DNA of 64,000 nucleotides from Eledone cirrhosa (Eukaryota). The DNA lies in contig OZ024745.1 in the NCBI GenBank assembly GCA_964016885.1, positions 5,394,001 through 5,458,000 on the forward strand. The letters run 5' to 3'. A program made the translations under genes and the position numbers. How positions within the stretch are numbered: the stretch's first letter is position 1; the number at the start of each line of letters is the position of its first letter. Shown in pieces: positions 8,490 through 58,238 of the stretch. A model generated the notes under the pieces. It was not told the DNA's origin. It ran no database searches and was given only the letters and a program-made list of their open reading frames with translations.

Positions 8490-8640
8490 CATCTCATTTC
8501 TACAGCTGAGTAAACTGGAGCAATGTGAAATAAAGTGTCTTGCTCAAGGAAACAACACATCACCCAGTCTGAGAATTGAACTCACAACCTTTCGATTGCA
8601 AGGCCAATGCTCTAACCACTAAGCCATGTGCCTCCATTCA
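8490..8640 (-). mobile_element. tRNA-derived CORE-type SINE fragment
   Basis: Minus strand CCTTGAGCAAGACACTTTATTTCACATTGCTCCAG; related copies at about 10015-10135, 11780-11945 and 22906-23220. Confidence 0.6.
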
Positions 8641-10247
8641 TATATGTATAGACTCACACATATACATGTTTGTGTAACTGCATGTATTTAGTTTATCTGG
8701 ATTCATTTACTAAGCTATCAAACAAGAACAAACTTTACTAAATGAAAAACAAACACTAAAAAGAAGATAATATATGAGTTTCTGATGTTAATAGATTTCA
8801 GTAGTTTTGGTAATGTTTCTAATTTTGTTAAATCAACAAATCATTGAAGTAACAGTTTATTTTCTGACTCTAGCTCTCCGACAAGACAGCATTATCTGCA
8901 TCCTTATGGGGGTCGATAAAATAAAGTACCAGTAATACACTGAGTAATTGCTGGCCTTGTGCCAAAAGTAGAAACAATTATCTGATATATAACTCTACTT
9001 TATTCCACTGAACCACCCACATGCAGTTTAATTAGCTATGGGATTAAACTGGGAATTGAAAGACAGACAATTTGAACCTGTTTATTATTTGAACAAGGTT
9101 GTGTCATATCCTTGTTAAATGATGTTTGTAAGGTTTCTGTTTCTGGAAACAGTATAAGTTTGATATGAGGAGACTTGGTTGTTTGTGGAGGATGACATCT
9201 TTCTAAGTTAAGTAGTAAAGTCAGAGACCAGGCTGTGAAATAATCTTACAATTAATTTTATGAGTAAACCTAAATATATTTATGTGGTTAGAATGTCTCA
9301 GGAATGAATCACTGGACATATTTTGTGGACATAACCAACTAGCAGAAGACCCAGGAGTAGACCCACTCTGAGCAAGATGGTTGGATAACATTCATGAGCT
9401 TGGTTGGTCTCGCTTGGTGATCTAGGAAGATCACTTGGAGATGGTTGCTTCTGACAGGACCCACTGGAAAGAATGTTGGAAGACTCCTGCCCTCATGACC
9501 CTCTCAACAAGAAAAAAAGAAAAAGAAAAAGAAAAAGAAAAAGAAAAAGAAAAAGAAAAAGATCTTTTTCTTTTCAGTTATTTTTCCCTTTGTTTTACAG
9601 TTTTTTTTTAATCCTAAGACATTTCATCACGCTCCCTGCCACAAGAGTACCACCTTCCACTATGAACTTACAGCACTTTTTTCCCTCAACTCACATGTAT
9701 GTGGTATTCAATAAGTAGGGAGAAAATATATCAGAGAGCCCCTATGTGATCATGTGGCCTGCTATATGTAGCAACCAATTATCCTTTAAATTTTACTTTT
9801 GTCTATAGTTAGCAAGAGAGCCTGTATGGGTCATGTGGCTTGCTAGAAGTAGCAACCAATTCTCTTTTAAATAACATGTTACCACTATCATACACATTAG
9901 ATTATTCACCTACAAGTGGGGGTATATCTTGTCAAATTGGACCAAGGAAGCAGTGTTCCCATTGGACTTTCCAATTGCTGATATTATCTACCAGTTACAA
10001 CTCCTGACAGAAGGAGCAATGGAAAATAAAGTATCTTGCTCAAGGACAAAATGCATTATCTGGCCCAGAATTGAAGTCACAACCTCACAATTGTGAATTC
10101 AATTCCATAACCCCTCAGCCATGCATCTTCACAACAATAGACACAATGAAACAGACAGAACAGTTAAAGGAATGAAATATACTTTGTCTGAAATACTGCA
10201 TCACATAAGATCAACTGTGAATCTCAGAATGGTCTTTGACTTGACAG

Positions 10248-21082: not shown

Positions 21083-22023
21083 TCATAAAAGAAAAATATC
21101 TTACATTCTTTCATTAATCTATAAAAAAAAGAAGTGAAGAGTATAAAATAACATGTGTAATTTAGGATTCCAGTAGTGTTGATACTTACAATATTAGTCT
21201 GAAGTGATATAAAATTAGAGATTCTTGAGGCTGGGTATACCACAGAAATATATTATAAAAATATGAAAAAGAAATATTGACATGTCTGAATGTTTAACAC
21301 GAGACATGAGAGTAGTCTGGGTTTTTTAAACAATTAGCTTCATTTCTTCTGTTTTTATCTGTAGTTATGTTTGAATCTCTCCTATAGCTACTGATTGTCT
21401 TTAGATGTCCTGGTTGTACATACACACACACACAGGCATACACACACACACACACACACTTGTGGTGTTATTTCTTTTGCAATCATGTATTGAGTTTGTT
21501 GTTTCTCAGTTGTATATACCAAGGTGCCATTATCTTTATATATATATATATATATATAACGAAGGAAGTGTGGTAAGGAACCAGGTGGACCATAACGCAC
21601 CAGTGTTCTCAATACTTAGGGTAGTAGAGTGGGTAATAGGAAAATGTTTAACCCTGACGGCAGAGGTGAAGCCGTTTCAATGGCAATTTCAGCCCATGCA
21701 TGTAGCAGAATCATGTTTATTACCAAGAAACATGTAGTAAACATGTTTCTGCTACATGTATGGGGCCTTCACACACATAGCTAATGTTGGTATCAGGACA
21801 AAAAGTGGCAGTTCACACTGTAAATGTGGTTGACATTAGGAAGGGCATCCAGCAGTAGAAACCAAGCCAGAAACAGTTCTGTATGAGCAAGACATGGTCA
21901 TCTGATCTCACTTGTCTCAATGGGACAACTTACAGGGAAAATGGACATTAAACAGTGATGATAGTGATGATGATGATTACAGATTAACAGTAATTTAATA
22001 GTTTTCACTTTATTTCAATGTAG

Positions 22024-23220: not shown

Positions 23221-23479
23221 AGTCTAACACATATATGGAAGAGAAATATTGAAAGCAAGGATAAGCAATCACTCCATGGTTGCAGGTGTGAAAGAATGCT
23301 AATTTTCTTTGCTTTAGTATACCTGTGAATTAAGGTGTGGAAACTAGAAGTGCATTTACCTGCCTAACACGGAGAATCTTTACTACATGACTGAATTAGA
23401 ATTGTATCAGTGAAATCCTTTTAAAAAGTAGTTCCAAGGAAACATTTGTGTAAGACATAAACAATATATATATAAACAT

Positions 23480-24092
23480 AAAAAATGAAACAAAATTTCA
23501 TTTCCCACTCTTAGTACGGCTGTTACTTAAATATAAGTATGTACACGTACATACATATATTTATACAGACGTACAGTAGTATGTATATATATATATACAT
23601 ACAAGCACAAATATATATATGTACGTATGGATTCACCAAACATTTATTATAATGCTCGGTGTGTTTGTAAACAAACATCCCGTATTAAGCCGTAGTGTCT
23701 AGCAACCTTCGTTGCTCGTTTGTTCAACACTGACAAAGGAACGCTGTACTAGTTTCAAGCTTATTAGCTATCGTCAGCAACGTATACTTTCCTGCCAGAT
23801 TGTTGAACGTATATACTTACCTTATGCATATTAATGGCTGAGTAGCCCAATTTGCATATCGAGTGGGTTAATCGGCCGGGTGCAACGAAAACGATAAACG
23901 GAAAAAATGAAACGAAATTTCATTTCCCACTCTTAGTACGGCTGTTACTTAAATATAAGTATGTACACGTACATACATATATGTATACAGACGTACAGTA
24001 GTATGTATATATATATATATACATACATGCACACATATATATATGTACGTATGGATTCACCGAACATTTATTATAATGATCGGTGTGTTTGT
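23480..24092 (-). mobile_element. Non-coding HHR element family A (retrozyme-like), about 1.4 copies of a unit of about 420 nt
   Basis: About 23481-23668 is directly repeated at about 23903-24092; one intact hammerhead; no ORF; TA-rich flanks. Confidence 0.82.
23742..23782 (-). ncRNA. Type I hammerhead ribozyme (intact)
   Basis: Minus strand: CGUUG-CUGACGA-U-AGCU-AAUA-AGCU-U-GAAA-CUAG-UA-CAGCG; palindromic stem III ACUAGU; stem I extended by GUUCAACA/UGUUGAAC. Confidence 0.87.
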
Positions 24093-24095
24093 ATA

Positions 24096-25025: not shown

Positions 25026-25090
25026 TATTTCATTATACATATTTCAGGGATACCAAATTAAATTATGGTATGCCTTCATCAGACAAAATA
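25026..25090 (-). ncRNA. Type I hammerhead ribozyme in a TA-flanked insert of about 180 bp (24985-25165)
   Basis: Minus strand: UAUUUUGU-CUGAUGA-AGGCAUACCA..UGGUAUCCCU-GAAA-UAUGUA-UA-AUGAAAUA; 8 bp stem I with two G-U pairs. Confidence 0.82.
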
Positions 25091-26195: not shown

Positions 26196-26268
26196 ATATA
26201 TATATATATATTTCGTTTCTGAATTTGTTTAGCAAGATTCTTTATCTGAAATCGTGTGTTGAAACCGA

Positions 26269-26497
26269 TATTGTTATACTTTGGGAGGGTCATGTTGCCA
26301 ATAAGAAACACACGCACCAGTTGCTTTCACATCAATTTATTATAATAAATTTATAAATTATTGGTTGTGGAACCAACCAACCAACCAGAAATTTATAAAT
26401 TCCTAAATTTATAAATTTATTATAATAAATTGAAGTGAAAGCAACTGGTGCGTGTGTTTCTTATTGGCAACATGACCCTCCCAAAGTATAACAATAT
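26269..26497. repeat. Fold-back copy of the 3' terminus of the PLE family at 28821-31120
   Basis: 26269-26360 matches 28821-28911 directly and 26363-26497 is the reverse complement of 28821-28954. Confidence 0.85.
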
Positions 26498-26525
26498 ATA
26501 TATATTATATATATATATATATATA

Positions 26526-28770
26526 GGGGATTTAAAATAACCCTACAAACGTCCCTGGCCCGAGTAAACTTCCTGGACGTGACCCTCGACCTCGAAAACG
26601 ACCTGTACTACCCATACAGGAAACCTAATGACAATCTGCACTACATCCACCGCCGATCAAACCATCCTAGGAACATCACAAACAACCTGGTCAAAAACAT
26701 CTCCCTCCGCATATCCCGTTTGTCAGTTAATGAGCGGATATTCGATGAACAAGCGCCTTATTACAACCAGGCCCTCAAGCGGAGTGGTTTCCGGGAGGAA
26801 ATATCCTACTGTCCAGCTCCCATTAGCGGAACCAGCAGGAGACACCGCCGCTCACGCAATGTAACATGGTTCAATCCTCCCCACAACGCAGAGGTGACAA
26901 CTCCCATTGGGAAACTATTCTTTAGGCTCATTGAAAAACACTTCCCATTACAACACCGCTACCACAACATAATTAACAAAAATACCATCAAACTCTCTTA
27001 CAGCACTACACCAAACTTTGCACAAAACATCGTCTCCTCTAACAACAAAAAACTCAACCCCGATGGCAGAAATAACCTAAATAGCAGTGGAGAACCGACC
27101 AGGAGGTGTAACTGCCCGGATAGATCTATTTGCCCACTCGACAATAGATGCAGAGACCGTAATGTGATCTACCAGTGCAACGTGAGGACGGATACCTCCA
27201 ACAAAGCCTATATAGGACTTACCGCATGTGACTTCAAGACCCGGCTATACCAACATAGACATACCTTCCGAAACCCGGCCCGGCGTCACGCCACTACACT
27301 TTCGGGCCACATATGGGACCTCAAGGACAACAACATCACCTATGATCTCACTTGGAGATTACTGTCCAGAGCCAATTCTTACACGGGAGGACGCCGTCCG
27401 TGCAATTTATGCTCGGAGGAAACTTTACAAATGCTGTTTTCGACGGACCAACTCCTAAACAAGAAAGATGAACTGGTTACTGCATGTAAACATAGATTGC
27501 GTAGGACTTACCTCGCCCTCAAACCCCATAATGACCCGGGGGGGTAGACTAGGGCTATAACACCCCACTTGCCGATTTTGCAATGGGTAACCCCTGCTTG
27601 CCAAGGGAGACGTAAGATCTTCTTTGTATTCTTTTATCGCTTCCTTTATTTCCTTCCCCCCTCTCTCCTTAGTCCTTCTACCCCAGCTCTTCTCCTTTGT
27701 CGGCGTCTTTTCTCGCCCACCTGAGGCTGCCCTTTGGCCCCTTGTAGCCTTAGTACCCCCACCCTCTCCCCTAGTCTATGATAGATTTGGCGGACTCCGC
27801 CCTTTATAGCAGTTGGTTTAGACCCCGGATACTTGTCCCCCTTTTTCCGACCGCTCCCACTATTCTCTGTGCCCTCTATATTTCTTAGTGGCACTTATGC
27901 CTTATTTTTTCGTTTCAGTATTTCTTTCTCCGCTTTTCTTTTGGGCGGGGTGGATTCTGAATTTATTTTTCCGTATTCTACCTTTACTTCGTACGAACTT
28001 TCATGTAGCTTGTTTTAGATCTTTTGGAGTTAGCATTAGTATATATTTTTCTTCGGGACTCAGAATTATTATCTCGTACAAGTTCACTTTGCTGCACTGG
28101 GTGGTTGCTGGCATTGTGCTCGGGATGGAAACCTTTATTGTTTATTTCGTGGTAGTCTCTTCAGTATTTTGGCCCCTTTTGTTGACCCGTCACCGTATCA
28201 TTTATGTACTTATACCTCTTAAAAGGGTCCTTGCCTATTCCGTCCCACCTAGTTCTTTTACTTATTTCGTTATTTCTTTATTTCTTTCTTTACTTCTTTC
28301 TTTCTTTATTTATTTATTTATTCTAGCCTAACAATAGCTAGAGACCTAGGTCGTAGAATTTAATTTACTTTACTTTTTTCTTTACACTTATTTGCTTTTC
28401 TTCACTCTCAGTATTTTTTCTTTCCTATATATTTCTACCCCCCATTGTTCTACCTACCGTTCCGACTTCCTCCCCCTCCCCCTCCCCTGTATCTTCTTTG
28501 ACCTCATGCCCAGCTGTAGCTGGCACTACCAACGCTTGATTGGGTCTACTCCACCCCCTCCCCTCTTTCTCCTACTGGCAGGTTTAGCCACCATCTCCCC
28601 TACGAATTTGCAACCACAGAATTACTACTGATTTTTGACAATCACTTTGACCATATATGGAATTACCCCTTGAGAAGATCGGCTATTTAAATACCAGGAT
28701 AAATTTTCATTTAGTCCAGAATTAGCCGTCGAAACGGCTTGAGCTCAGCTGTCGGGGTCTTACTGGTTCC

Positions 28771-28772
<2 letters not shown>
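26526..28772 (+). mobile_element. 5'-truncated Penelope-like element, probably Naiad clade (RT thumb + GIY-YIG)
   Basis: ORF 26579-27547: (FLDV)TLDL, SNHP, WFNPP, CNC..CPL..C, NVIY..YIGLT..FKTRLYQH, CNLC..E; long 3' UTR ending in a hammerhead; inserted in (TA)n. Confidence 0.9.
28665..28758 (+). ncRNA. Type I hammerhead ribozyme with U3-A8 covariant core
   Basis: ACCCC-UUGAGAA-GA(U)CGGCUA..UAGCCGUC-GAA-ACGGCU-loop-AGCUGU-C-GGGGU; all three stems pair; GUC cleavage triplet. Confidence 0.85.
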
Positions 28773-28820: not shown

Positions 28821-31120
28821 TATTGTTATTCTTTGGGAGGGTCATGTTGCCAATAAGAAACACACGCACCAGTTGCTTTCACTTCAATTTATTATAATAA
28901 ATTTATAAATTAGGAATTTATAAATTTCCGGTTGGTTGGTTGGTTCCACAACCAGATGGTTGTTTATATATTGTCAAAGTTCTTTCGTCACACATTCTGT
29001 GACCTCTTCAGTGACTGGGGATTCTTTTCTTTGTTTTTGTGCCTCTCCTTTGTTCTGTCCTACGCCATCTTGTTTCTGTGTGTGTGTTGTGTGCTCAGTC
29101 TGCACATGCGCCGCATCCGGGTGTCTGTGTGTGTTTATATTTGTTTATTTATTTGTTTATTTACATGTTACCGGTTGGTTGTTTGTTCTATGTGTGTGTG
29201 TGTTTTCATTTTGTCCTTAATTGTAAGTTGTGATGTTGCTGTTCCACTCATATTTTCTATTTAATTTTGGTTGTAATTCTTTTATGTTTATTGCCTCTGT
29301 AATTTGTCTAAACATTGCGTCTTTTCTGTGTGTAGATTCTATTTTTATTTCTATGTTCTCTAATTTACCCTTATGTTCTATTTTAGCATGTTGGTAGAGT
29401 ACAGATGATTCTTTACTATCTTGAAGGTCTCGCCAGTGTTCATTTATCCGTTCCCCTACACTACGAGCTGTCTCACCTATGTACACTATATTTTTGTCTC
29501 TACATTGTCCTTCAGTACATCTTATGCTATATACTACATTTCTAGTTTTACAGTTAATATGGGGGCTTAATTTACAGGTTATACATTTCTTACCTATACA
29601 GGGGGGGGGGGTCTTTGAAAAGGGTATGTCTTGCTAATAAGTGTTTTTATGGAGGTACCTGGTCTTTCTACTATCTTAATATTGAGTTTATGTTTATCTA
29701 GGGCCCTTCTAAATTTGTAAGCTAATTCACCTCTAGGGGTTGTATCGATGAACATTACACTCTGGTATTTATTGCTATCATACCATGAGTTTATACTATT
29801 AGCCTTATTCCTAGTTCTTTCTATTCTATTCCAAAATTTGCTCCTATACAAGGGGCAGGTCCCATTTGTGTCATTATTTACCATTTTTTCCCATTTGGTT
29901 CTGGCTCCTCTATAAACTCTGATTTTATCTCTCTGATTGTAACCAGAGAACTGCATACGGTGGATGAAGTGTTGTATGTGTCTCTCTAGTTCTCCGGGGT
30001 TGCACATGCGGGACACGTTTCTCATCACCAGTACCAAATCCGCAATCAGTATGTTGATTTTGGTATGGTCCGAAACAGCCGAGTTTCGGTGGATCAGGTA
30101 TTTGGAAGACATGTGTTTGGCATAATGGGAATGGAGGATTTGTTTTTTGTTATTAATGGTATCTAACCAGAGCTCTGTGTCTAGTACAGGTAATCGATGG
30201 TTGGGGTGTTTGCTTGGGTAGTCTATAGTAACTCTAATACTCTGGTGGATGGAGTTAGCTATTTGCTGGATGCTTTCCATTGTGTTTTTCTCTAATTCCT
30301 GACTGTTCTCTAGTGGGGGTGTTTTAACTACGATGTTTATATCATCAACGTAGCGGGAGTACATTATCAGGGTTAAGGGGTCTTCTAATTGTTCTTTAAG
30401 TTTAACTCTACTGTCCCACCATACCATGAATAAGTTAGCTATGTCACCTGCAATGCTAACACCAATGGCTGCTCCCTCCTCTTGGGCATATGTTTTTCCA
30501 TTAAATTTGAACATATGTTCCTTAAGGGTTAATTTATGCTGGCCCCCACCGCATGTGCAATCATTTTCTTTAGTTCATCGTGGTTTTCGGGGGTCCGTAT
30601 GGCTCTGGTCCACCCGTTCCATCTATCTGTGTGGGGTTTCTTGGCCATTGAGGTAATGGTAGGTGGTCTGCCTCTTGCTGGTCTTGTAGGGCACAGGTTG
30701 CTAAGGTCATATGTGTCTAGATAATTATTACTATAAGTAAGTTTAAGTAGGAGTCCCAGCTCACTGGTATCAATCCCACGGAACTCAACATTGCTCTCAC
30801 TGATCATTTCTACGCATTTCTCCACAGCAAAATCCACGTCAATAGATGGATACAGGGACACAACATCCATACTACCTATTATGCAGTTTTTTAGGTCCCT
30901 AGATCGGTTACCCTCGCCGATTGTGCTGAGGAGGTCCTCCGTGCTGTCACATACATCTGGGGACATTTCAATGATGGGGCGTATGATCAGGAAGAGGAAG
31001 TAGGACTGTCTGTAGTTACTAGCAATGTTAGCTCCACAGACTGGCCGTGTTGGTGGTCCCGTGACAGGGTCACTGCCCGTTTTAAGGTCTTTTCGAAGCC
31101 CATAAAACGGTGGCACGTCA
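28821..31120 (-). mobile_element. 5'-truncated, frameshifted Penelope-like element (clade not assigned)
   Basis: ORFs 30529-31116 ([18 protein letters not shown]), 29594-30514 (GAAIG, YSRYVDD, LPVLD) and 29217-29486 (YIGETARS..ERINEH, GIY-YIG). Confidence 0.9.
28973..29015 (-). ncRNA. Minimal type I hammerhead ribozyme in PLE 3' end
   Basis: Minus strand: GUCA-CUGAAGA-G-GUCACA-GAAUG-UGUGAC-GAAA-GAAC-UU-UGAC. Confidence 0.8.
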
Positions 31121-31136
31121 TATATATGTATATATG

Positions 31137-31187
<51 letters not shown>

Positions 31188-31266
31188 GTATATATGTATA
31201 TATATATATATGTATATATGTATATATGTATATATATATATGTATATATGTATATATGTATATATG

Positions 31267-31297
<31 letters not shown>

Positions 31298-31558
31298 GTA
31301 TATATGTATATATGTATATATATATATATGTATATGTATATATATATATATGTATATATGTATATATATATATATATGTATATATGTATATATGTATATA
31401 TATATATATGTATATATGTATATATGTATATGTATATATGTATATGTATATATGTATATGTATATATGTATATGTATATGTATATATGTATATATGTATA
31501 TGTATATATGTATATGTATATATGTATATGTATATATGTATATGTATATATGTATATG

Positions 31559-31602
<44 letters not shown>

Positions 31603-31604
<2 letters not shown>

Positions 31605-33918
31605 ACTTTGAATAACTTTGAAATGTTTTGGCCAGTATTGGCCCAGGCCATGTCTAACTTAATAGCACCACCTGGCGAAGTCTTTCAATTCAGGATTTGG
31701 GCACCATGGCCCATTCGAGAAGAGAATTACTGTTTGCGGAGACATATCCGGGTGTGGGTGGTTTGTCCGGGATTACTTGGAGGAATTTGTCCAAAGACTT
31801 CTTGAATTTTGTGTGGTCAGTTTCTGTTTTGACGTGTCCTGGTGTGATGTTGAAGAGAGCAGGGCCGATTGAGGTGAAATAATTGTGCCGTATTGTTGTT
31901 ATGAGTTGCGATTTAGATTTTTGAATGGGACGGATAGCACGGGGCCCAAGCCTTGGGTGTATCTTGGAGGTGATGCCAACATCATTTGGGCAGTGATGAT
32001 GGAACATTTTCCACATCATGCAGATAATATAACGCTCACGGCGACGTTGGAGTGAGTAAAGTTTCAGGTTTTCCAATCGACCCCAGTAGTCAAGGTCTGA
32101 CATGCCATCTATCTTTTTCGTGATTGCCCTTTGAGGAGCTTCAAGTTTCATGATACTTTGTTTCGTGTGGGGAGACCACAGTGGACAACAGTATTCAAGG
32201 TGTGGTCGGGCGAAAGTAGAGAAGAGAAGGATAATGGTGCGGGAATCTCTCGACTGGAAGGTTCTGAGGATCCAGGAACACATTCTGCGGGCCATGTCAA
32301 CTTTGCTGCTTATATGCGTGGTCCAGCTTATGTTGCTGTCCACGGTTACTCCCAAGTCTCTGATGTTGTTAGATGCCACGAGAGTTTCCCCGGAGGGAAG
32401 GGAGTACGGGAGTTTCAGAGCATCCTCTTTTCCAAAGTGGATCAGTTCGAATTTGTCTTCGTTCAGTAACATGTTGTTCTTTTCTGCCCATTGGGTAACA
32501 GCCAGTAGGTCTGACTGAAGGCTTATCCGGTCATCCACGCCATTGATGACCTTTTGGAGCTTGGAATCATCAGCGAAAATTTTAATGTTGCTGTGTTTGA
32601 TGATGTCAGTGATGTCATTAATATAGATGATGAAGAGAAGTGGGCCCAACACAGTGCCTTGTGGGACTCCACTACTGACTTTGGCTGGGCTTGATTTGAC
32701 TCCCTCAACTACAACATGTTGGGTTCTGTTTGACAGGAAGCTCTTGATCCACTGCAGCAGCTTTCCAGTGACACCAATATTGGACAGCTTTCTCAGTAGA
32801 ATGTTATGATCAACCCTGTCAAAGGCCTTGCTGAAATCAAGGTAGATAACATCAGTGTTGGAACCCTCTCCCAAGGCTCTCAAAATGTCATCAAAGTGAT
32901 GCAGTAGTTGCGTCAGGCAATCCCTTCCATTACGGAATCCATGCTGGTTGGAGTTCAGCATATTGTTACTCTCAAGGAAGTGGGTCATTCGCGATCTCAC
33001 CACTCGCTCAAATACCTTAATGATATGAGAGGTGAGTGAGATTGGACGGTAATTCACGGCAAGGGATTTGTTTCCCTTTTTGAAAACTGGGACAACAGAC
33101 TGGGATAGAAGGTTTTCTGGCACATATCCAGCATCCAGTGAGTTCCGCCACAGATTGGCAAGAGGAGAAGCAAGTTGGTGTTGACACGCCTTCAAGACAC
33201 AAGCAGGGAACCTATCGGGACCTACTGCTGAATTATGCTTGATTTCCTTTATTGCCGCCAAGACATCAGGGGCGCCAAACGTTATGTCCGATAAGGTGTA
33301 ATGGGGAGTAACATCGCCGATACAGCCCAGATCGGCCATATCAGGATTGCTGAAAACAGAGCAGTATTGTTTCTGCAGTATCTCACCCATGGTTTTAGCA
33401 TTGTCTTGAAGAGTGCCATTTTCATCAATTAGAGGGCCAACAGTAGAGCCAGTGATTTTGTGTTTTTTTGCAAATGAAAAGAACACTTTGGGATTGAGTT
33501 TGATCTTCTCAATGGCCCAGGCCTCTTCAGCTCTTCTCTGATTGTTGATGAGGGACATTATGTTGTTTTGGAGGTTATGTTTTTTAATCTCTAGTGATGA
33601 AATGGCAGTCAAGTTGATGTGTTGCTGCTGACAGTATTTCAGATTGTTGATTTTTTTGTTCGTTCTCTTAATTTTTCTGATGAGCGTTCTTCTATTTCTA
33701 GGGATTCTGCTCTTAGATTTGTTTATAGTTCTTAATGGGGTGTGTTTAGCACATATGTAACAGTGTCCACAAATGTCTGCCAGGACTTTTTGATGTTAGT
33801 GGGTGTATGAGTGTGCGTGAAGGACCAGTCGACATGTGCAAGATCATGACTGATCGCTTCCCAGTTTGCATTGTGGAAATCCATAGCGTCAAACGGATGG
33901 ACAAAGTTATTCAAAGTA
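31603..33918 (-). mobile_element. 5'-truncated CR1-group LINE
   Basis: ORF 31690-33612: NYRPISLTS, YLDFSKAFD, GVPQGTVLGP, FADD, RRRERY; short-repeat tail (TTCAAAGTTA)x2. Confidence 0.92.
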
Positions 33919-35116: not shown

Positions 35117-35136
35117 TATATATATATATGTATATA

Positions 35137-35219
<83 letters not shown>

Positions 35220-35226
35220 ATATGTG

Positions 35227-35294
<68 letters not shown>

Positions 35295-35298
35295 TATG

Positions 35299-35451
<153 letters not shown>

Positions 35452-35526
35452 GTATATATATATATGTATGAAAGACGTAAAACAAGAAAATTTTAAAAAA
35501 TTAAAAATTAACTTACTAAAATTTTC

Positions 35527-35608
35527 ACTCCAACTAATTAGTTTCTGTAATGGGATAAAGATAGTTACGTAATGTAACCATTGAGAATTCATTACGTCAT
35601 CAGGGAGT
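35527..35608 (-). ncRNA. Type I hammerhead ribozyme (intact)
   Basis: Minus strand: ACUCC-CUGAUGA-C-GUAAUG..CAUUAC-A-GAAA-CUAAUUAG-UU-GGAGU; palindromic stem III. Confidence 0.86.
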
Positions 35609-36093
35609 CTATTCTCAGCTAAGTCTCCAGGCAATGCGCGGACACTAGGGACTCATATAAAAATAATAATTCGGTGGATGGAACAGCTAGCGGGGACTGA
35701 ATTCCATGCACTGAAAAAGTTCACTGTCTCTGGTCAAATGGCAGATTCTAAAGAATCAATCACGTGACACTGAGGCTAGTCGGAAGGAGTGGGGTGGTAA
35801 AATGACAAAAGCGTACTACCACACCTATGAATTAGTAGTGGATTTGGCAGGTTTGCTCAACAAATAAATAATTTGGAGATAAATATAGAGAATTAGTATA
35901 TCTACCAACATATGCGTACACATGTACACTAACGCTAGCAAATACATAAGTTATGTCATAGTACCTAGGTGGTTCAATGCAGGAGGATGCAGAACAGGAA
36001 TTTAGTCCCCGCTAGCTGTTCCATCCACCGAATTATTATTTTTATATGAGTCCCTAGTGTCCGCGCATTGGCTGCACACTTAGCTGAGAATAG

Positions 36094-36175
36094 ACTCCTT
36101 GATGACGTAATGAATTCTCGATGGGTACATTACGTAACTATCTTTATCCCATTACAGAAACTAATTAGTTGGAGT
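36094..36175 (+). ncRNA. Type I hammerhead ribozyme, C3U core variant
   Basis: ACTCC-TTGATGA-CGTAATG..CATTACA-GAAA-CTAATTAG-TT-GGAGT; inverted copy of 35527-35608. Confidence 0.78.
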
Positions 36176-36394
36176 GAAAATTTTAGTAAGTAAGTTAATT
36201 TTTAATTTTTTAAAATTTTCTTGTTTTACATCTTTCATATAATTGTTCTGCATCCTCCTGCATTGAACCACCTAGGTACTATGAAATAACTTATGTATTT
36301 GCTAGCATTAGTGTACATCTGTACGCATAAGTTGGTAGATATACTAATTCTCTATATATATATGTATATATATATGTATATATATATGTATATA

Positions 36395-36425
<31 letters not shown>

Positions 36426-36436
36426 GTAAATATATG

Positions 36437-36573
<137 letters not shown>

Positions 36574-36746
36574 GTATATATATATGTATATGTATATATA
36601 TATGTATATGTATATATATGTATATGTATATATATATGTATATGTATATATATATGTATTTGTATATATGTATATGTATATATATATGTATATGTATATA
36701 TATATATGTATATGTATATATATATATGTATATATATATATATGTA

Positions 36747-36791
<45 letters not shown>

Positions 36792-36833
36792 GTATATGTA
36801 TATATATATATGTATATATACATATGTATATGT

Positions 36834-37373
36834 ATCATCATCATCATCATCACCGTTTTACGTCCGTTCTTCCACGCTAGCATGAGTTAGACGGGTTGTC
36901 CTGTTGTGTGCAGTGTCTGGTCGGCTGACAATGCCTTGCTCATACAGGAACTGATCTGGCTTGATTTCTACAGCTGGATGCCCTTCCTAACACCAATCTC
37001 ATTTACAGTGAGTGCTGGGTGCTTCTTCGTGGCGCCTACACGTCCACTTTACAGTGTGGGCTGGGTGCTTTTTTGCCGTGGCACCTCCACGACCACCTTG
37101 CGGTTGGGGGTGTGGGGGCATATTGTTTATATGCTTTAGCATGTACCCGTGGGAGGTCGGGTACTCTGTATTACTGCGTGACGCCAGAAGTCACGGTCGT
37201 GTGTCATTGTCTTTGAGAGGTGTAATTGGGTAAGGTCGGCTTTTATCACCTCAACCCAGGTCATCTTGGGTCTCCCCACTCCGCGGTTTCCATCAACTTC
37301 TAGTGCTCTGCACCTTTTTATGCAGCTGTCATCCTTCATACGCATCACATGTCCATACCAGCGCAACCGCCTC
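36834..37373 (-). mobile_element. RTE LINE 3' fragment (family RTE-A)
   Basis: [19 protein letters not shown]; 3' UTR and (TGA)n tail as in 2903-4429. Confidence 0.9.
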
Positions 37374-37423: not shown

Positions 37424-39982
37424 TATTCTGACATCACCACAGATGAACTTCACATCATTCTCACCGCACGTAAAACCATCCTAGAGTTCAACAATGAATA
37501 TTGAACCAGAGCCGATACCTCTAACAACTTCGACATCACAATGGGAGCATCCGATTCATCCCAATTGACAGATTTAATTGGTATCTTTATTTTGAACTCT
37601 TTGAGTTGGAAAATTCCTCAACTTCGCGGTGGAATTTATCGTGATGATGGACTCTTTACTATCTTAAATTGCAACATAGTTAACCTTAATATTATTAAGA
37701 ACAATATACGTAATCTCTTTAACCAACATAACCTAAAAATTGAATTTGATAACAGCATCAAACTAGCTAATTTCTTGGATGTATCTCTTAATCTTGACAC
37801 TGGCCTATATTACCCTTACCATAAAAACAATGAGAACCTAAATTATGTTAACTTTAAATCTAACCATCCTACTAATATCAAGAATGCTATAGTTAGTAAT
37901 ATTGGAAAAAGAATATCTAACCTATCTTCTAATAAAAACATCTTTGATGCTAACGCCAATTACTATAATAACGCACTTTCTAAAGCCGGCTATCCTGATA
38001 AAATCAAATATAGTAAAGAAACAAATTCTAGAAGAAATTACAGTAGAATAATTAATCATGATCATTCCAATAACTTTAATAAAAGACCTAGATACAAAAA
38101 CATAATCTGGTATAATGCTCCTTTCTCCATCTCTATTAATAACAATATTCCTAAATTATTCTTTAGTGCCTTAAATAAATGCTTCCCTCCCTCACATATC
38201 TATAGTAAAATATTTAACAAACACACTATAAAATTTTCCTATTCGACATCCTCCAACATTTCCAACATTATCTCTAAACACAACAATAAAATACTAAATA
38301 CTAAATCTCTTCCTTCCAACACTGAATTTCATAATAATAGTAATAGTACTCCCGACGTCATTGTAAACCCTAGGCTAATTTCTGCAAACCCAAATACAAC
38401 GTCAAACACAATTTCGCTAAATGTTCTTAATCCCATTCTAAATCAAGAAACTATTATTCCTATCGCAAATAACTTCTCCAATCCAATTCATTCTATAGAT
38501 AACACTAGGTCACTCGTTAATAATCTCTCTAATGGCAATTGCAATTGCCCTGTTAAAAATAAATGTCCTCTCAACAACCATTGTCTTGATAAAAACTTAA
38601 TTTACGATTGTAAACTTATAACTGACACCAATTCCTTCACCTATTTTGGCTCCACTTCCACCTCTTTTAAAGCTCGTCTTTATAACCATCATTCGTCTTT
38701 TAAATACAAACTTAAAAGAACCAACACGGCTCTCTCAGAACTCATATGGTCCTTGAAAGACAAAAATATTAAATATAGCATCTTTTGGAAGAAGGTTTCT
38801 TTTGCGTCTCCATACTTGAACAGTTCTCTATCCAAGATTTGCAATCTCTGTCTAAATGAAAAATTTACCATTATATCTAATTTAGATTCTATAGTAAATA
38901 GACGCACTGACTTGTTTTCTATCTGCTTGCATAAATTCCACAAAACATTTCACAAAGTATACAGCTAATATCCAAATCTTTATCAATTTAGAATCTTTTT
39001 TCTCAAAGGCACATATATATATATACACTTCTTTAAAAATATACCCATCTTTCTACCTTATTTCAAAGGTCTTATTATACATTATATAATACTTGTTACT
39101 CATTCTATAACGCTCCTATTTTTCTTTTAATGTCTAACCCCTAATCTGTACCTTTTCTCACTGTTGCCTAACATAGAATCAATTATTACATAATGCAATA
39201 CATTCTTACTCTATATCACCTTGTAAAAATCCTTTTGACGTTAGATTATTCATCCTCAATTCATTATTCTTTTCTCCCTTTCATCTAACTCATTCACGCT
39301 CATCTCACAATATATCCTTACTTAAATTACCTGTTGTTCTTTTTAATAATATATATCAACATTTTCTTTCCATCGCACATATTATTAAACCCTTAAATAT
39401 CATTCTTAATACATATTAACTTTTTCTTTCCATCGCACATGTTATTAAACCCTTAAATATTATTCTTAATACATATTAACATTTTCTTTTCATCGCACAT
39501 ATTATTAAACCCCTCAATATACAAACCTTAACTTTACATTATTTTTCTCTTCGTTAATTTTCAAATTCTTTTAATTTATACATTATCTTCCAACGGTTTT
39601 CAACCTCTCTATGGAAAACAATATATCTTTCTCAGTTATAAAAGCTATCTCTCTCTCTCTATCACCCATCTCTCCTCCTATCTCATCCTTCCTCATTATA
39701 CTCATCCTTCTCCATTTTTTACTCTCATCTCCTCCTCTTTTTCATCCTTTCTAACACCCACCCCCCAAAAAAAAAATTTTTTTTTCCCCAATATCACACA
39801 TCAATCTAAAACTACTTCTCATATGTTGATTTAAAACTGCACTATCCACAAGTGTTTTTTAACCTTCATATCATGTCTTCCTGTTTTATCTGATGAAAAC
39901 AAATATTATTGCATGATGATATTTGTTTTTGAAATGCGCATAATAAAATACATGGAACTCTTTTAACCATCTTTTGTTCTTA
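37424..39982 (+). mobile_element. 5'-truncated Penelope-like element, probably Naiad clade (second family)
   Basis: FDITMGASD, GGIYRDDGL, FLDVSLNL, SNHP, IIWYNAP, CNC..CPL, NLIY..YFGST..FKARLYNH, CNLCLNEK; 3' UTR with a 60 bp tandem repeat at about 39360-39515 and a terminal hammerhead. Confidence 0.9.
39882..39950 (+). ncRNA. Type I hammerhead ribozyme in PLE 3' end
   Basis: UGUUUUAU-CUGAUGA-AAACAAAUAUUAU..AUGAUAUUUGUUUU-U-GAAA-UGCGCA-UA-AUAAAAUA; palindromic stem III AUGCGCAU. Confidence 0.87.
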
Positions 39983-48479: not shown

Positions 48480-51400
48480 CTGAGCGCTCACTCCTTAGTA
48501 GAGGCCTTCGCTTCATACCCCACACTCCGCACAGCGACGAGTTCCGCATCCGAACGGAAGTCGAGCGATTCGTGCGACGCACTAAGCTACAGGCACATTT
48601 CAACCGAACGCCACCGGCTCCGGACGCCTCAGACCCGTTTCTCGCCCTGGGCCGACGACCATCTTCTTGGACGCCGGCCCCAGGGCAATTTAGCACCCTG
48701 GACGCCTTCGTCGATGCCAGCCGTAGCGCAGTAAATCGTTTCGACTTCCGCCACCGTTCCAAACGGTACAATATCTCACGGGGCGAACTCCTCGCTCTCC
48801 GCTCCCTCCGTAGCCGAGATGACATCGTCATCAAACCGGCGGACAAGGGAGGCGCCGTGGTGGTATGGCGCGCGGACCTCTACACGGCCGAAGCCCTCTT
48901 ATACCGCCCTCTACCCTCCGATCCCACCCCCCTCTACCAACAACAAGTCTCCTCCACCATCCAACACCTTATCGCCTGGTCCCTCCTCCCCCCACCGCTT
49001 CCCACCTCATCGTCCGCACCCCCCCCCCCGCACCCCCACCATCTACTTCCTCCCCAAACTCCACAAACCCGACAACCCCGGCCGCCCCATCGTCTCCGCT
49101 TGCAACTGCCCCACTGAACTCATCTCCGCCTTTCTCGACTCCATCCTCGCCCCCCTTGTCACCACCCTCCCCTCCAACATCTCTGACACCAACCACGCCC
49201 TGCGCCTTTTCGACTCCTTCACCTACCCACCCGGCCCACAGCCCTTCCTCTTCACCCTAGACATCAAGTCCCTCTATACCGTCATCCCCCACGCCGACGG
49301 CCTACGTGCCCTCAAACACTACCTCGACCTTCGCCCCTCCCCCATTCCCTCCACCCCCACCCTCCTTCGCCTCGCAGAGCTGGTCCTCACCCTCAATTGT
49401 TTCTCCTTCTCGGGTGAGTTTTACCAACAGGTCACGGGGGTAGCCATGGGTACAAGAATGGGCCCGAACTATGCCAACCTTTTTGTTGGCCATGTTGAGG
49501 CCCAAATCTTTGCCCAGTACACCGGCCCCACGCCCGAACTGTACAGTCGTTACATTGACGACTGTATCGGAGCAACGACCCTCACCCGAGAACAGCTCGA
49601 CTCCTTTCTCTCCTTCTTCTGCTCCTTCCACCTCTCCCTCCACTTCACCACCTCTATCTCCACCACCCACGTCCACTTCTTAGACATCTCCGTCGCTTTC
49701 GACCCCTCCCACCACTCCCTCGTCACCTCCACCTTCTTCAAACCCACCGACTCCCACTCTTACCTCGACTTCACCTCTTCCCACCCCACCCACACTAAAC
49801 ACTCCATTCCCTACTCCCAACTCCTCAGGATCCGCCGCCTCTGTAGCCGAGATGCTGACTTCGAGTCCCAGGCCCTTTCCCTAGTCAGCCATTTCATCCG
49901 CAGAGGTTACCCCCCTCTCTCGTCCACACCGCTCTCACCCGCGCCTGTGCTGTCCACCGCTCCACCACCCTCATCCCACGCCACCGCACACCCACCTACT
50001 GTCTCTCCTTCCCCATCACCTACCACCCCTCCACCGCACCATCCGCTGCCTCTTCCGACGCCTCCAGTCCGATCCCTCCACCTCCCACATCTTCCCAACC
50101 CCACCACTCCCCTCCTTCAAACGCGCACGCAATCTCCGCACCCTCCTCGTCCACAGCTCCCTACCCCCAAACCACGCTCTGTTCCCCCCCCCCGGTTCCT
50201 TTCCCTGTTCTAGGCCCCGCTGCAACACCTGTCCCCACATCACCAACACCACCACCTTCCAGGGTCCCAACGGCCACTCTCTCTCTGTCCGGCATGCCTT
50301 CCGCTGCACCTCCTCCAACCTAGTCTACGGGACGGGACGTCGCCTGGCGGACCGATTCACTGAGCACAACCGGGATATTCGTCTCGGTGGTAGTTCGCCC
50401 ATCGCCCGCCACTTTGGTGGCCCTGGACATTCCGCACGCCATCTCACAGTCTGTGGCCTACTCCAATGCCACGGAACACCCGCCAATCGCCTTAGAGTCG
50501 AAAAAAGAACTATCTTCATCTTACAGACCCACACTTCCCCCGGCCTGAACTCCTCACCCTTATTCCTTTAGCCTTCGACCGCCCCGCTCCCCCCACACCT
50601 ATCCCCCACTAACACCACTAACACACCCCTCCTTTTCACCGCCCACCCCACAACTAACAATACTAACACTTCCACTCCACCCCTCATCCGACCACCCTTC
50701 CCCAACTAACATACTAACATCCCTCCCTTCTTCTCTTCCTCCACCCCTCCTTATCACACGCACACACCCACCGGCACATATATACACACGCTCACACTAA
50801 ACACACACCCTACTACCACCACTAACCCTCACCCCCACACCTCCATCCCACCACCCCGCAACTAACCTCACTAACACCCCCTGACCCCAAGCACACGAAC
50901 ACACGCACCCACTTACACCACCCACCCCACACGCAACTAACATCACTATCACCCCCCAACCCCACGCACACGTACCCACACACCCTCGTACACCACCAAC
51001 TCTCCACACCCTACCACCACTAACCCCCACACACACGTGCTTTCCACCACATATTTACACCCTCAGCCTCCTGATTCCTCTCCTCCCACCCCTCTATCCA
51101 CACATGCACAGACACTCCGACCTACAACACCCCCCACACACACCTCTTCCTGAACATGCAACCCCGTTCTTCCCCCAACCCTTACTTTCACACACACACA
51201 CACACTCACACACGTACACCTACACACACACACCACCTTCAGCCCTCCCCGCTCGGACACCCCGTCTCCCTCTCCCCACTCCACCCGCCACCACCCCTAC
51301 ACACCCCACACCCTTCCACCACCTGTTTTACCCCTCTTTTAATTTCAGTTTATTTTGATCATGCTTTTATATTTAATTTTATTTCATTCCTTGTATTTTG

Positions 51401-51627
51401 ATCATGCTTTATTTTTACTTTTATTTTTAATTTCATTCGCACCGTTTCCTTTCGCTATATGTCTCTCCACCACTCCCCTACACACCCTTTGAACTCTGTT
51501 CCCACCTGAGGAAGGGCTTATGCCCGAAACGTCGTTCCCCACCACCACCCCACTCTCCAGAGCGTGAAATTAATAAACATTCGTTGTACTGCCTCTCTGT
51601 TTTGTTCCTGTTCAAATTTTTCCATTA
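48480..51627 (+). mobile_element. Penelope-like element, probably Neptune clade, frameshifted
   Basis: LSRGLRFIP, IKPADKGGAVVVW, LPKLHK..PGRPIVS, TLDIKSLYT, GVAMGTRMGP, RYIDD, SSHP..SIPYSQ; GIY-YIG remnant CTSSNLVY-GTGRRLADRFTEH lacking the YIG segment; C-rich 3' UTR. Confidence 0.9.
51504..51535 (+). ncRNA. Minimal hammerhead ribozyme in PLE 3' end
   Basis: AC-CUGAGGA-A-GGGC-UUAU-GCCC-GAAAC-GUC-GU; palindromic stem III ACGU; stem I only 2 bp locally. Confidence 0.8.
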
Positions 51628-54318: not shown

Positions 54319-55340
54319 AGGAGTGATATAGAATGAGTAACAAGTATTATATAATGTATAATAAATAACTTTGAAATAAAGTAGAAAGATGGGTATATTT
54401 TTAAAGAAGTATATATATATATATGTGCCTTTGAGAAAAGGATTCTGAATTGATAAAGTTTAGGATATTAGCTGTATACTTTATGGAATGTTCTGTGGAA
54501 CTTATGCAAGCAGAGAGGAAACAAGTCAGTGCGTCTATTTATTATAGAATCTAAATTAGATATAATGGTAAATTTTTCATTTAGACAGAGATTGCAAGTC
54601 TTGGATAGAGAACTGTTCAAGTACAAAGCAGCAGAAGAAATCTTTTTCCAAAAGATGTTATATTTAATATTTTTGTCTTTCAAGGACCATATGAGTTCTG
54701 AGAGAGCCGTGTTGGTTCTTTTAAGTTGGTATTTAAAAGACGAATGATGGTTATAAAGACGAGCTTTAAAGGAGGTGGAAGTGGAGCCAAAATAGGTGAA
54801 GGAATTGGTGTCAGTTATAACTTTACATTCATAGATTAAGTTTTTATCAAGACAATGGTTGTTGAGAGGACATTTATTTTTAGCAGGGCAATTGCAATTG
54901 CGATTAGAGAGATTATTAACGAGTAACCTAGTGTTATCTATAGAAGGAATTGGATTGGAGAAGTTATTTGCGATAGGAATAATAGCTTTTTGATTTAGAA
55001 TGGGATTAAGAACATTTAGCGAAGTTGTGTTTGACGTTGTATTTGGGTTTGCAGAAATTAGCCTAGGGTTTACACTGACGTCGGGAGTACTATTACTATT
55101 ATTATGATATTCAGTGTTGGAAGGAAGAGATTTAGTATTTAGTATTTTATTGTTGTGTTTAGAGATAATGTTGGAAATGTTGGAGGATGTCGAATAGGAA
55201 AATTTTATAGTGTGTTTGTTAAATATTTTACTATAGATATGTGAGGGAGGGAAGCATTTAATTAAGGCACTAAAGAATAATTTAGGAATATTATTAATAA
55301 TAGAGATGGAGAAAGGAGCATTATACCAGATTATGTTTTT
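54319..55340 (-). mobile_element. Internal fragment of the Naiad-like family at 37424-39982
   Basis: KNIIWYNAP..FHKVYS closely matches ORF 37541-38968, plus about 150 bp of 3' UTR. Confidence 0.9.
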
Positions 55341-55522
55341 GCATTCACTGTAAATGAGGTTGGTGTTAGGAAGGGCATCCAGCTGTAGAAATGAAGCCAA
55401 ATCAGTTCCTGTATGAGCAAGGCATGGTCAGCCGACCAGACACTGCCCACAACAGGACAACCCGTCTAAGCCATGCTAGCGTGGAAGAACGGACGCAAAA
55501 CGGTGATCATGATGATGATGAT
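55341..55522 (+). mobile_element. RTE-A 3' UTR stub
   Basis: Reverse complement of about 2903-3082; (TGA)n tail. Confidence 0.85.
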
Positions 55523-55583: not shown

Positions 55584-55637
55584 TAAATATATATATATAT
55601 ATACATAGATATATGTATATATATATAAATATATATA

Positions 55638-56086
55638 TGAAAGACGTAAAATAAGAACATTTTAAAATTAACTTACTTACTAAAATTTTCACTCCAACTA
55701 ATTAGTTTCTGTAAGGGAATAAATATAGTTACGCAATGCAACTATAGAGAAATCCTTACGTCATCAGGGAGTCTATTCTCAGCTAAGTTCGCAGGCAATG
55801 CGCGGACACTAGGAACGCATATAAAAATAATAATTCAGTGGATGGAAAAAAGCGAGCGGGTACTAGATTCCAGGGCACAAGAAAAAAATTCACTGCCTAC
55901 TTGGTCAGTGGCAAATTCTAAAGAATCAATCACGTGACACTGAGGTTAATCAGTGAGAAGTGGAGTGGTAATAAGACAAGAGCCTAACTACTACCATGAA
56001 CCATAGTAGTAATTTCGGCAAGTTTTGCTCAACAAATAATTTGGTATACATCTGTATACATATGTTGGTAGATATACTAATTCTCT

Positions 56087-56088
<2 letters not shown>
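55638..56088 (-). mobile_element. Non-coding HHR element family C, diverged second locus with short inverted end
   Basis: Collinear with 35468-35876; about 56045-56088 is inverted and ends at the same TACTAATTCTCTATAT as 36353. Confidence 0.8.
55691..55772 (-). ncRNA. Type I hammerhead ribozyme (intact, covarying stem II)
   Basis: Minus strand: ACUCC-CUGAUGA-C-GUAAGG..CCUUAC-A-GAAA-CUAAUUAG-UU-GGAGU. Confidence 0.87.
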
Positions 56089-56173
<85 letters not shown>

Positions 56174-56448: not shown

Positions 56449-58238
56449 ATAAACGTTTGAATATGTGTAATAAAGCCAAAACAATGCAGGTATGGACATA
56501 GAAAAAAGAATGCAATTGTAAAAGATATTGTTGACAATTCATCCTTTACCTTAGATTTATTTAAATGTCCTTAATTTTCGAGATAATATCTCTTCTTCAG
56601 AGGGAAATAAAGGTCTCAAACCAGCGTTCTAAATATCTTGCCAAGCCATGCTGACAGGAAATAGTATAGAGTATCTGTTCTATCTCTAATGTCAAAGAGT
56701 TAAAATTAGGTGGATAAAAAGTAGTCTCCCTTTAAAAGGGGTTTGTTTAGGGTTTTTTATTTTTTATTTTATATACATGCCTGTATAAGTGTGTGGGAGA
56801 ATGCATGAAGGTGTAAGTATGTGAGTGTGTGTGTGTGAGTGTGAGAAGATAAGTCTATTCGTAAATGTGGAGGATAGGTGTTATCTGGTGTAGAACTGGT
56901 TTTGTGTGTGTATGTGTGAGAGAGAATAAGTGGAGGTGTAAGCGTGTGTGTGTGTGGGGTGTGTAAATATGGGGCTAGAAGCCCTATCAGGTTATAAATT
57001 GGGTGTTGAGTTCTAGTCTATTATTGATTGGTGGTTGTGTTTTATCTATAATTAGTGCTTCCTTAATTCTAAGATTGCCGAGGTTTCTTTCCTTAGTTTC
57101 TATCCTAACTGTTATGGTTTTGTCGGTGTTTTTGCATTTAACTAGGTGTTTCTTAAATGAGGAAGCGTTAGTATTGAGGTGTTCTTTTATTCTTATGTGG
57201 AGTGGTCTGGTGGTGCTACCTACGTAGAAGTTGTTGCATTTGTCACACTCTAGTCTGTATACGACGTAAGCCTGGTGGCATAGGTCTGTGTCGTTGATGA
57301 GGCAGTTGGCTAGTCTGCAGCAGTTGTCATGTCTGGTGGAGTGTCTCTTGGCCAGCCGTCCGTGCAGAGAAGGACCCGAGTGGGCCAGTTGGATATCCAG
57401 TCCCTCTCGTCTGATGGCTCTGCGGATGGCTGTTGTTGTTTCTTCACTGAAGTGTGGGAGCTTCAGGAAGCAATTGTTAGTGTCTCGGGTGTGGTGTCCT
57501 CTGTTCTTTCTGGCACGGTTTGTGGTGGACGTCGTGCATCTGTTCAGTCCGAGCACCTCCAGGAAACGTGTGGCGTGTGTGTCTCGGTCTCCAGCGTCGG
57601 TGCATTTGTTCCGGATACGTGCCAGTTCGTTCCTTATGTATCCGAACTTGGCACCGAGTGGGAGGGCCGATCTGAAATGTACGAACAGGTCCCTGCTGGC
57701 GGCTTTTTTATAGAAGCAGGTGTGGATGTTGCCTTCCTCTGTTACCCTGAGTTGGAAGTCCAGTAGGGATAGGGATCCGCGGTCATCGGGGTGTTCCATG
57801 CTGAACTTTATACTGGCGTCCATGCTGGAGAATGTTGTGTATATTTTATCTGCCTCCTCACGGGATGATGTAAGTATGAGTATGTCATCTACATATCGGG
57901 TGAAGAAGGCATGGGAATGGCAGAGTTGAGGGCTCGGCATTCTAGCTGGTGCATGTAGGTGTGGCCAGCAGGCCCGATAGGTTGGATCCCATGGGTAATC
58001 CTGTTGTCTGTCTGTATGTGTGGTGGTGGAAGGTGAAGTACGTGTTGTCTACTGTGAAGGACAAAAGCTGATGTATGTCCGTCGGGTGGAGGCCGTAGCA
58101 GTGGATGTCCTCTGCGACCACGCAGTCCGTCAATAAATCGTCAACGAATTGTCAACAATATCTTTTACAATTGCATTCTTTTTTCTATGTCCATACCTGC
58201 ATTGTTTTGGCTTTATTACACATATTCAAACGTTTATA
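56449..58238 (-). mobile_element. 5'-truncated Penelope-like element with inverted terminal copy of its 3' end
   Basis: GLPMGSNLSG, FTRYVDD, LSLLDF, VVYRLEC..C..FYVGSTTR.L..RIKEH (GIY-YIG); about 58147-58237 is the reverse complement of 56449-56540. Confidence 0.9.
56569..56603 (-). ncRNA. Minimal hammerhead ribozyme in PLE 3' end
   Basis: Minus strand: CCU-CUGAAGA-A-GAGAU-AUU-AUCUC-GAAA-AU-UA-AGG; palindromic stem III AAUU. Confidence 0.78.

Follow-up and report, generated by a model that had tools for sequence, protein, structure and literature searches.

EN+ Penelope-like elements are standardly found as inverted 5'-truncated copies, with a tail at one end and a bias towards (TA)n targets (PMC8557442; PMC3846280). 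In vitro work on the anole enzyme has described the extension of both target strands from two internal start sites, which define the tail, and favours uncut RNA as the main template (PMC11167929). A 2014 proposal traces copies of more than one unit to circular templates (PMC4209133), the expression of small hammerhead units as circles in animals was reported in 2020 (PMC7229834), and such units have been argued to be non-autonomous Penelope derivatives (bioRxiv 10.64898/2026.07.22.740005). The origin of tandem and inverted Penelope-like copies, and of circular templates from hammerheads, is nevertheless presented as an open question (PMC8557442). Outside this group, twin and dual priming have been described for L1 (Meyer et al. 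2010, PMC2837659), and in cephalopods Penelope-like elements are listed for Octopus vulgaris in a source whose accessible part leaves hammerheads unmentioned (PMC13282606).

The locus described here lies in a window of 64,000 nt (the whole stretch of Eledone cirrhosa DNA that was analysed), and probably represents a non-autonomous Penelope-like (retrozyme-type) unit of 534 nt, for whose mobilisation in trans an autonomous Penelope-like element would supply the reverse transcriptase/GIY-YIG protein.

Arms, joint and outer ends

The focal insertion (35469-36352) is flanked by two long TA tracts, and self-comparison of the window resolves it into the order A-B-C followed by inverted C-j-A (Table 1). 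The left arm proper covers 35469-35995 (527 nt) and is followed by one A at 35996. The right arm, in minus-strand reading, runs ...GGATGCAGAAC-AATTATA-TGAAAG..., where the 7-nt joint j connects the end of the unit to its start, resulting in a unit length of 527 + 7 = 534 nt; just four letters of j are without counterpart in the left arm and its flank. A first-pass annotation had proposed this end-to-start joining through AATTATA in the inverted right arm, and a circularly permuted unit of about 535 nt, with a self dot-plot as the check, and the self-comparison and a letter-level reading of the arms confirmed both. The junction as described there is correct, but its head and tail were assigned on the strand opposite to the hammerhead-sense RNA.

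Table 1. Features of the focal insertion, its flanks and the third copy, in window positions
Feature	Position	Strand	Remarks
Left (TA)n/TATG target tract	35120..35468	.	18 G and 0 C per 349 nt on +
Left arm, 6 nt short of one unit, c-b-a in RNA sense, 3' end at left flank (priming site 1)	35469..35996	-	
Segment A	35469-35705		left arm
Type I hammerhead motif (predicted), intact CUGAUGA/GAAA core	35527..35608	-	own descriptor and fold
Segment B, ending in TATA-like site 2 (35879-35887)	35706..35887	-	
Segment C, with stable hairpin 35946-35897	35888..35995	-	pair probabilities 0.98-1.0
Inversion point, read as junction of two cDNA ends	35996..35997	.	microhomology of at most one base
Right arm segment a, inverted copy of 35469-35705, hammerhead motif 36094-36175 with C3U	35997..36237	+	
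Joint j, TATAATT on +, end of a to start of c	36238..36244	+	contains priming site 1
One-sided tail (j + c), 115 nt	36238..36352	+	ends at priming site 2 against right TA tract
Right (TA)n/TATG target tract	36353..36836	.	38 G and 2 C per 484 nt on +; polarity as left
Third copy, left arm (A+B)	55638..56044	-	about 9% diverged over A; intact hammerhead core 55772-55691
Inverted arm of third copy, covering the initial 41-45 nt of C	56041..56085	+	starts at site 2

Two inverted pairs came out of the self-comparison, one matching 35467-35705 with 36239-35997 (95.1%, 243 columns, E 1e-108) and the other matching 35879-35996 with 36361-36244 (95.8%, 118 columns, E 1e-50). The long inverted repeats previously claimed for the two arms are real as pairs, but they interleave (A, C, A', C') and cross, which makes a single hairpin impossible, and segment B, occurring once in the focal insertion and again in the third copy, is left unpaired. 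A DNA transposon with terminal inverted repeats was rejected, since neither pair is terminal to the other and the two cross. Inside (TA)n sequence a target-site duplication would not be discernible.

The third, more distant copy of the family lies at 55630-56096 in the self-comparison (arms at 55638-56085), and its two inverted, non-overlapping fragments with an internal deletion have the shape of twin priming. Its left arm begins at site 1 and ends 2-6 nt ahead of site 2, a 4-nt overlap blurring the exact point. In the focal insertion the arms overlap by about 350 nt, and that non-overlapping shape is absent. Both insertions hold an inverted truncated copy beside a direct one, in agreement with the literature (PMC8557442) and with the annotation's statement that Penelope-like insertions often carry inverted 5' segments.

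The outer ends of the two insertions are identical, left at site 1 and right at site 2, and all four abut TA tracts; the inversion points differ while these ends stay fixed (2/2 copies). They correspond to two of the four TATA sites of the unit, one in the joint and the other where C borders B, with 115 nt between them counted through the joint; the match to the TA tract is 2-4 nt at site 1 and at least 5 nt at site 2. On the hammerhead strand both outer ends are RNA-sense 3' ends facing the TA flanks, as needed for target-primed copying, and their fixation at TATA-like RNA sites in two insertions argues that both target strands primed reverse transcription.

Overlapping inverted arms with an extension on one of them also occur in an unrelated insertion at 26212-26493, an inverted insertion derived from the Penelope-like element whose 3' end lies at 28824-28954 (arms of 89 and 132 nt with the same 3' end, the left one bearing a 60-nt extension without other copy in the window), and this layout is therefore not peculiar to the focal family. 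Other repeats of the window include a small non-coding family between TA tracts, present as a partial tandem at 23472-24093 (200 nt repeated at a spacing of 422) and in an inverted, overlapping form at 2117-2588, in neither of which the descriptor finds a hammerhead. There are, furthermore, an imperfect 72-nt palindrome in single copy (21693-21764), a long tandem repeat with QYRHHHHYW-like runs in one frame and a strong strand skew (58700-64000), and a tRNA-like stretch at 8565-8628 (minus), the sole Rfam match of the window at gathering score, which has relatives near 10013, 11820 and 22903 and is probably the head of a SINE.

Hammerhead motif, fold and relatives

The minus-strand motif lies near the 3' end of the unit and combines a stem I of 5 bp, a long two-part stem II (about 50 nt, with a nested hairpin) and a palindromic stem III, its cut being predicted after GUU, between 35532 and 35531. 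Penelope-like hammerheads are known to have a palindromic stem III, a stem II of great length and one additional base behind A9 (PMC4209133). Judging from descriptor and fold, this is predicted to be a type I hammerhead motif with self-cutting capacity. Concerning the opposing hammerheads of the first-pass annotation, the motifs do lie on opposite strands (35608-35527 on minus, 36094-36175 on plus), but in the right arm the core has mutated to UUGAUGA (TTGATGA versus CTGATGA in DNA), and no Rfam hammerhead family matched at the insertion; around it, 16 weak matches at E up to 10 comprised zero ribozymes. The descriptor marked six type I hammerhead-like sites in the window, three of them in this family (35603 minus, 36099 plus and 55767 minus), and in its strict form it gave no match in each of five block-shuffled windows. 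Over the three family copies the fold is paired in 65/66 cells, with one stem II pair changed on both sides, and the covariation among these three sequences is without significance (155/500 shuffles as high).

Folded as a circle, the unit reaches -124.8 kcal/mol versus -97.8 +/- 5.5 in shuffles (z = -4.9; 0/60 as stable), with 61% of it paired. Across the joint, segment c is paired with the end of a (7.7 expected pairs versus 1.9, a level reached by 1% of 300 shuffles), in a helix that was picked post hoc from the fold, has a probability of 0.43 in the whole-arm fold and carries a mismatch in the left-arm version of c. A coding remnant was rejected: the longest stop-free stretch is 64 codons, and tblastn of eight Penelope-like ORFs from the window gave no match to the unit. 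An ORF for reverse transcriptase and GIY-YIG endonuclease, the mark of an autonomous Penelope-like element, is absent from the unit, and neither a pLTR sharing sequence with the family nor a direct tandem copy of the unit is present within the 64-kb window.

The window also contains several Penelope-like fragments. At least six ORF fragments of this kind were recognised at 26492-28771, 37505-39981 and 48735-51625 (plus) and at 29217-31653, 54468-55427 and 56987-58048 (minus), five of these at least six having a hammerhead-like motif 91-189 nt ahead of a TA tract. In the ORF scan (seven ORFs), two match GIY-YIG and one matches RVT_1 below its cut-off, and blastp ties three more to the RVT_1 one. 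Seven hand-picked hammerhead-like motifs outside the family likewise precede a TA tract, at a distance of 68-189 nt counted from the start of the motif. One hammerhead-like motif, at 28670-28760 (plus) behind the ORF 26492-27547, is altered in its core, has a stem II some 50 nt long and escaped the descriptor; two others, at 25082 (minus) and 39890 (plus), are alike, with a stem I of 8 bp, the former without adjoining ORF. No sequence was found in common between the focal family and the other hammerhead-like motifs or Penelope-like fragments of the window. The 64-kb window yielded no autonomous partner. The family would behave as a retrozyme-type passenger of Penelope-like elements.

Relatives were searched for more widely. 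Exact 24-nt and 19-nt motifs from the hammerhead end had zero matches in metagenome and viral contigs, and a looser core pattern retrieved 44 metagenome and 11 prokaryote loci, 0/55 of which resemble the family (blastn E 1e-3; best nhmmer E 0.12). Five of the metagenome loci (L015, L016, L025, L032 and L039) carry the letters of the hammerhead core and share the palindromic stem III, are otherwise unlike the family in sequence, and may be unrelated hammerheads. A word search of sequencing runs, which listed no RNA run, gave 0.42-0.49 of the words in three runs of one sample, possibly the source, and 0.05-0.18 in eight further rows, and was not counted as evidence.

Priming and template

From what is directly observed on the unit, i.e., its anatomy, two fixed outer ends, a hammerhead motif and no coding capacity, we infer the remaining steps as follows. 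The enzyme would cut the (TA)n tract on both strands, and each freed 3' end would anneal to a short UAUA site inside the RNA. The first would prime at site 1 and copy a, b and c (one unit minus 6 nt), and the second would prime at site 2, which lies 115 nt from site 1 towards the RNA 3' end, and copy c, j and 241 nt of a, after which the two cDNA ends would be joined head to head. Given that both focal arms copy a and c, two RNAs (dual priming) or strand displacement would be needed here; in the third copy one RNA might have served both primers, the first cDNA being halted at the second primer (twin priming).

Which RNA was copied? The predicted cut site lies 63-67 nt inside site 1 and is crossed scar-free by all three long arms, and a self-cut linear monomer therefore cannot be the template. 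This crossing, together with the right arm running from C into A, means that the template was continuous across both points, as it would be in an uncut tandem transcript or in a hammerhead-cut, religated monomer circle, at about even odds. The circular or multimeric template of the first-pass annotation thus survives in part: the right arm needs a template running end into start, for which circle and tandem transcript are likeliest, but the joint alone does not separate these two, it is seen in one copy, and a one-off template jump might also have produced it. Nor is the joint a surprise, since it is the known one-sided tail on the inverted arm of Penelope-like elements (PMC8557442; PMC11167929). 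Set by judgement and not by computation, our assessment holds a tandem transcript possible at a little under an even chance and a circle possible at much the same level or slightly below, with a small remainder, not much less than that of the template jump, for other explanations.

Against the scheme set out above stand the single observation of the joint and the absence of a tandem copy from the window, the lack of relatives in the searches (0 motif matches, 0/55 loci) and of a pLTR match in the window, the non-significant covariation with three sequences, and the post hoc choice of the cross-joint helix, with its probability of 0.43 and its mismatch in the left-arm c. The anole element, moreover, is reported with homology-free priming and, in the accessible part of that report, with no RNA ends at the hammerhead site (PMC11167929), and the tail of 115 nt exceeds the usual 30-40 nt.

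The left arms of both insertions stop just short of a TATA-like priming site, and that of the focal insertion ends 6 nt short of one unit, with 2-3 nt left to the TATA of site 1. For a stop placed at random, the chance of lying no more than 3 nt from one unit is 1.3%, and no more than 6 nt from it 2.4% (n=1, post hoc). This stop, and its parallel in the third copy (2-6 nt before the site of the second primer), suggest a tentative reading, somewhat short of an even chance, in which reverse transcription went once round a monomeric RNA circle and was halted by collision with its own primer. A circle predicts the stop, but it would also be expected if C began at a natural 5' end of the RNA, or if copying of a tandem transcript paused where protein was bound to the upstream site 1. 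The stop is a weak hint of a circular template, and a tandem transcript or a template jump explains it nearly as well. In the literature covered, mostly outside subscription journals, no paper was found that reads a one-turn stop as evidence of a circle and, by title and abstract start, none on twin priming as a Penelope-like mechanism.

In a linear monomer with a one-off template jump, the true RNA 5' end would be the start of c, the left arm would be a full-length copy, and the second cDNA would have run off the 5' end onto the 3' part of an RNA, the joint being an accident of one insertion and its four unique letters an RNA tail or untemplated. This fits a left arm ending within one base of the start of c, predicted as well as by a circle, and a joint observed once. 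We consider it unlikely, as it requires a full-length copy and a precise jump in one event, the pairing across the joint is above 99% of shuffles, the position of the hammerhead, 63 nt inside the 3' end, is understandable if c follows on the cut piece, and inspection identified no promoter where c begins.

An antisense template that folds back and primes itself has been proposed to explain the head-to-head inverted pLTRs of rotifer Penelope elements (PMC3846280), and the focal arms are indeed head to head; alternatively, an ordinary partial-tandem copy could have been inverted or duplicated later as DNA. The inversion point, however, lacks a palindrome, the restart of the inverted arm is 291 nt back and not at the turn, and the right end is common to the third copy, which is not expected from random rearrangement; these explanations are quite improbable.

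As for the arms themselves, 8/237 aligned letters differ between the A arms, together with one 4-nt indel, and 4/109 between the C arms (about 3.5% overall). With the third copy as outgroup, five of the ten covered substitution sites match the left arm, three the right and two neither, and at the indel the third copy agrees with the right arm. Two different source templates, though still conceivable, need not be invoked for these differences: the changes are spread over both arms, hitting the right-arm core and a hairpin, and ageing suffices. The flanks bear their G interruptions on the plus strand on both sides, and thus represent one tract split in two and not mirror images. An assembly artefact from fold-back reads is hardly credible in spite of the difficulty of assembling inverted repeats between long TA tracts, noted for Penelope-like elements (PMC8557442), and of counter-evidence that consists of sequence letters and not of read-level support, as the arms differ by 12 substitutions and the indel, distributed over both, the G-rich flanks are of one polarity and unmirrored, and the joint carries letters missing from the left arm.

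A unit that can be copied in one turn, with two fixed priming sites, makes the choice between circle and tandem transcript countable: a circle would give a pile of arms at exactly one unit and none longer, and a tandem transcript would give arms past one unit. If one-turn stops recur across copies, the genome sequence by itself would show circles, and not tandem transcripts, as the insertion template; with two insertions, the hint of a circular template is a lead and not a result.

Comparison with known systems

Like the EN+ Penelope-like insertions (Craig et al. 2021, PMC8557442; Arkhipova et al. 2013, PMC3846280; Frangieh et al. 2024, PMC11167929), the focal insertion joins an inverted 5'-truncated copy to a direct one, with a tail on one arm, a hammerhead near the 3' end, a (TA)n target and two internal start sites of reverse transcription. 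Its opposite-strand hammerheads are about 500 bp apart, and such pairs are 100-700 bp apart in an earlier account (PMC4209133). Unlike those elements, the unit is devoid of an ORF, its tail measures 115 nt versus 30-40 nt (PMC8557442), it is so short that the direct arm reaches round and contains the tail sequence, and both of its start sites are TATA-like and match the target.

With metazoan non-LTR retrozymes (Cervera and de la Pena 2020, PMC7229834; Li et al. 2026) the unit shares a small, non-coding and strongly self-paired sequence, a type I hammerhead and a palindromic stem III, and the Penelope-like mobilisation from circular RNA proposed there is the one considered here. Its 534 nt are above the 170-400 nt of one report (PMC7229834) and within the 51-972 bp of the other (bioRxiv 10.64898/2026.07.22.740005). 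In contrast to retrozymes, its stem II is about 50 nt long with a nested hairpin, the cut is predicted at GUU, the 64-kb window contains no tandem array of hammerhead units, and the unit is known from DNA alone; for the last two reasons the family is not filed as a retrozyme.

As in L1 twin and dual priming (PMC2837659), each target strand appears to have primed a cDNA and the two cDNAs to have been joined head to head, and the third copy has the classic non-overlapping twin-priming shape with a small deletion. Unlike L1, there is no poly(A), the second site is fixed, and the overlap of the focal arms fits dual priming (two RNAs) over one RNA. The architecture of the focal insertion is thus ordinary, being the published Penelope-like pattern of an inverted truncated copy, a one-sided tail and a microsatellite target; new here are a non-coding family whose tail is long and, weakly, a single hint of a circular template.
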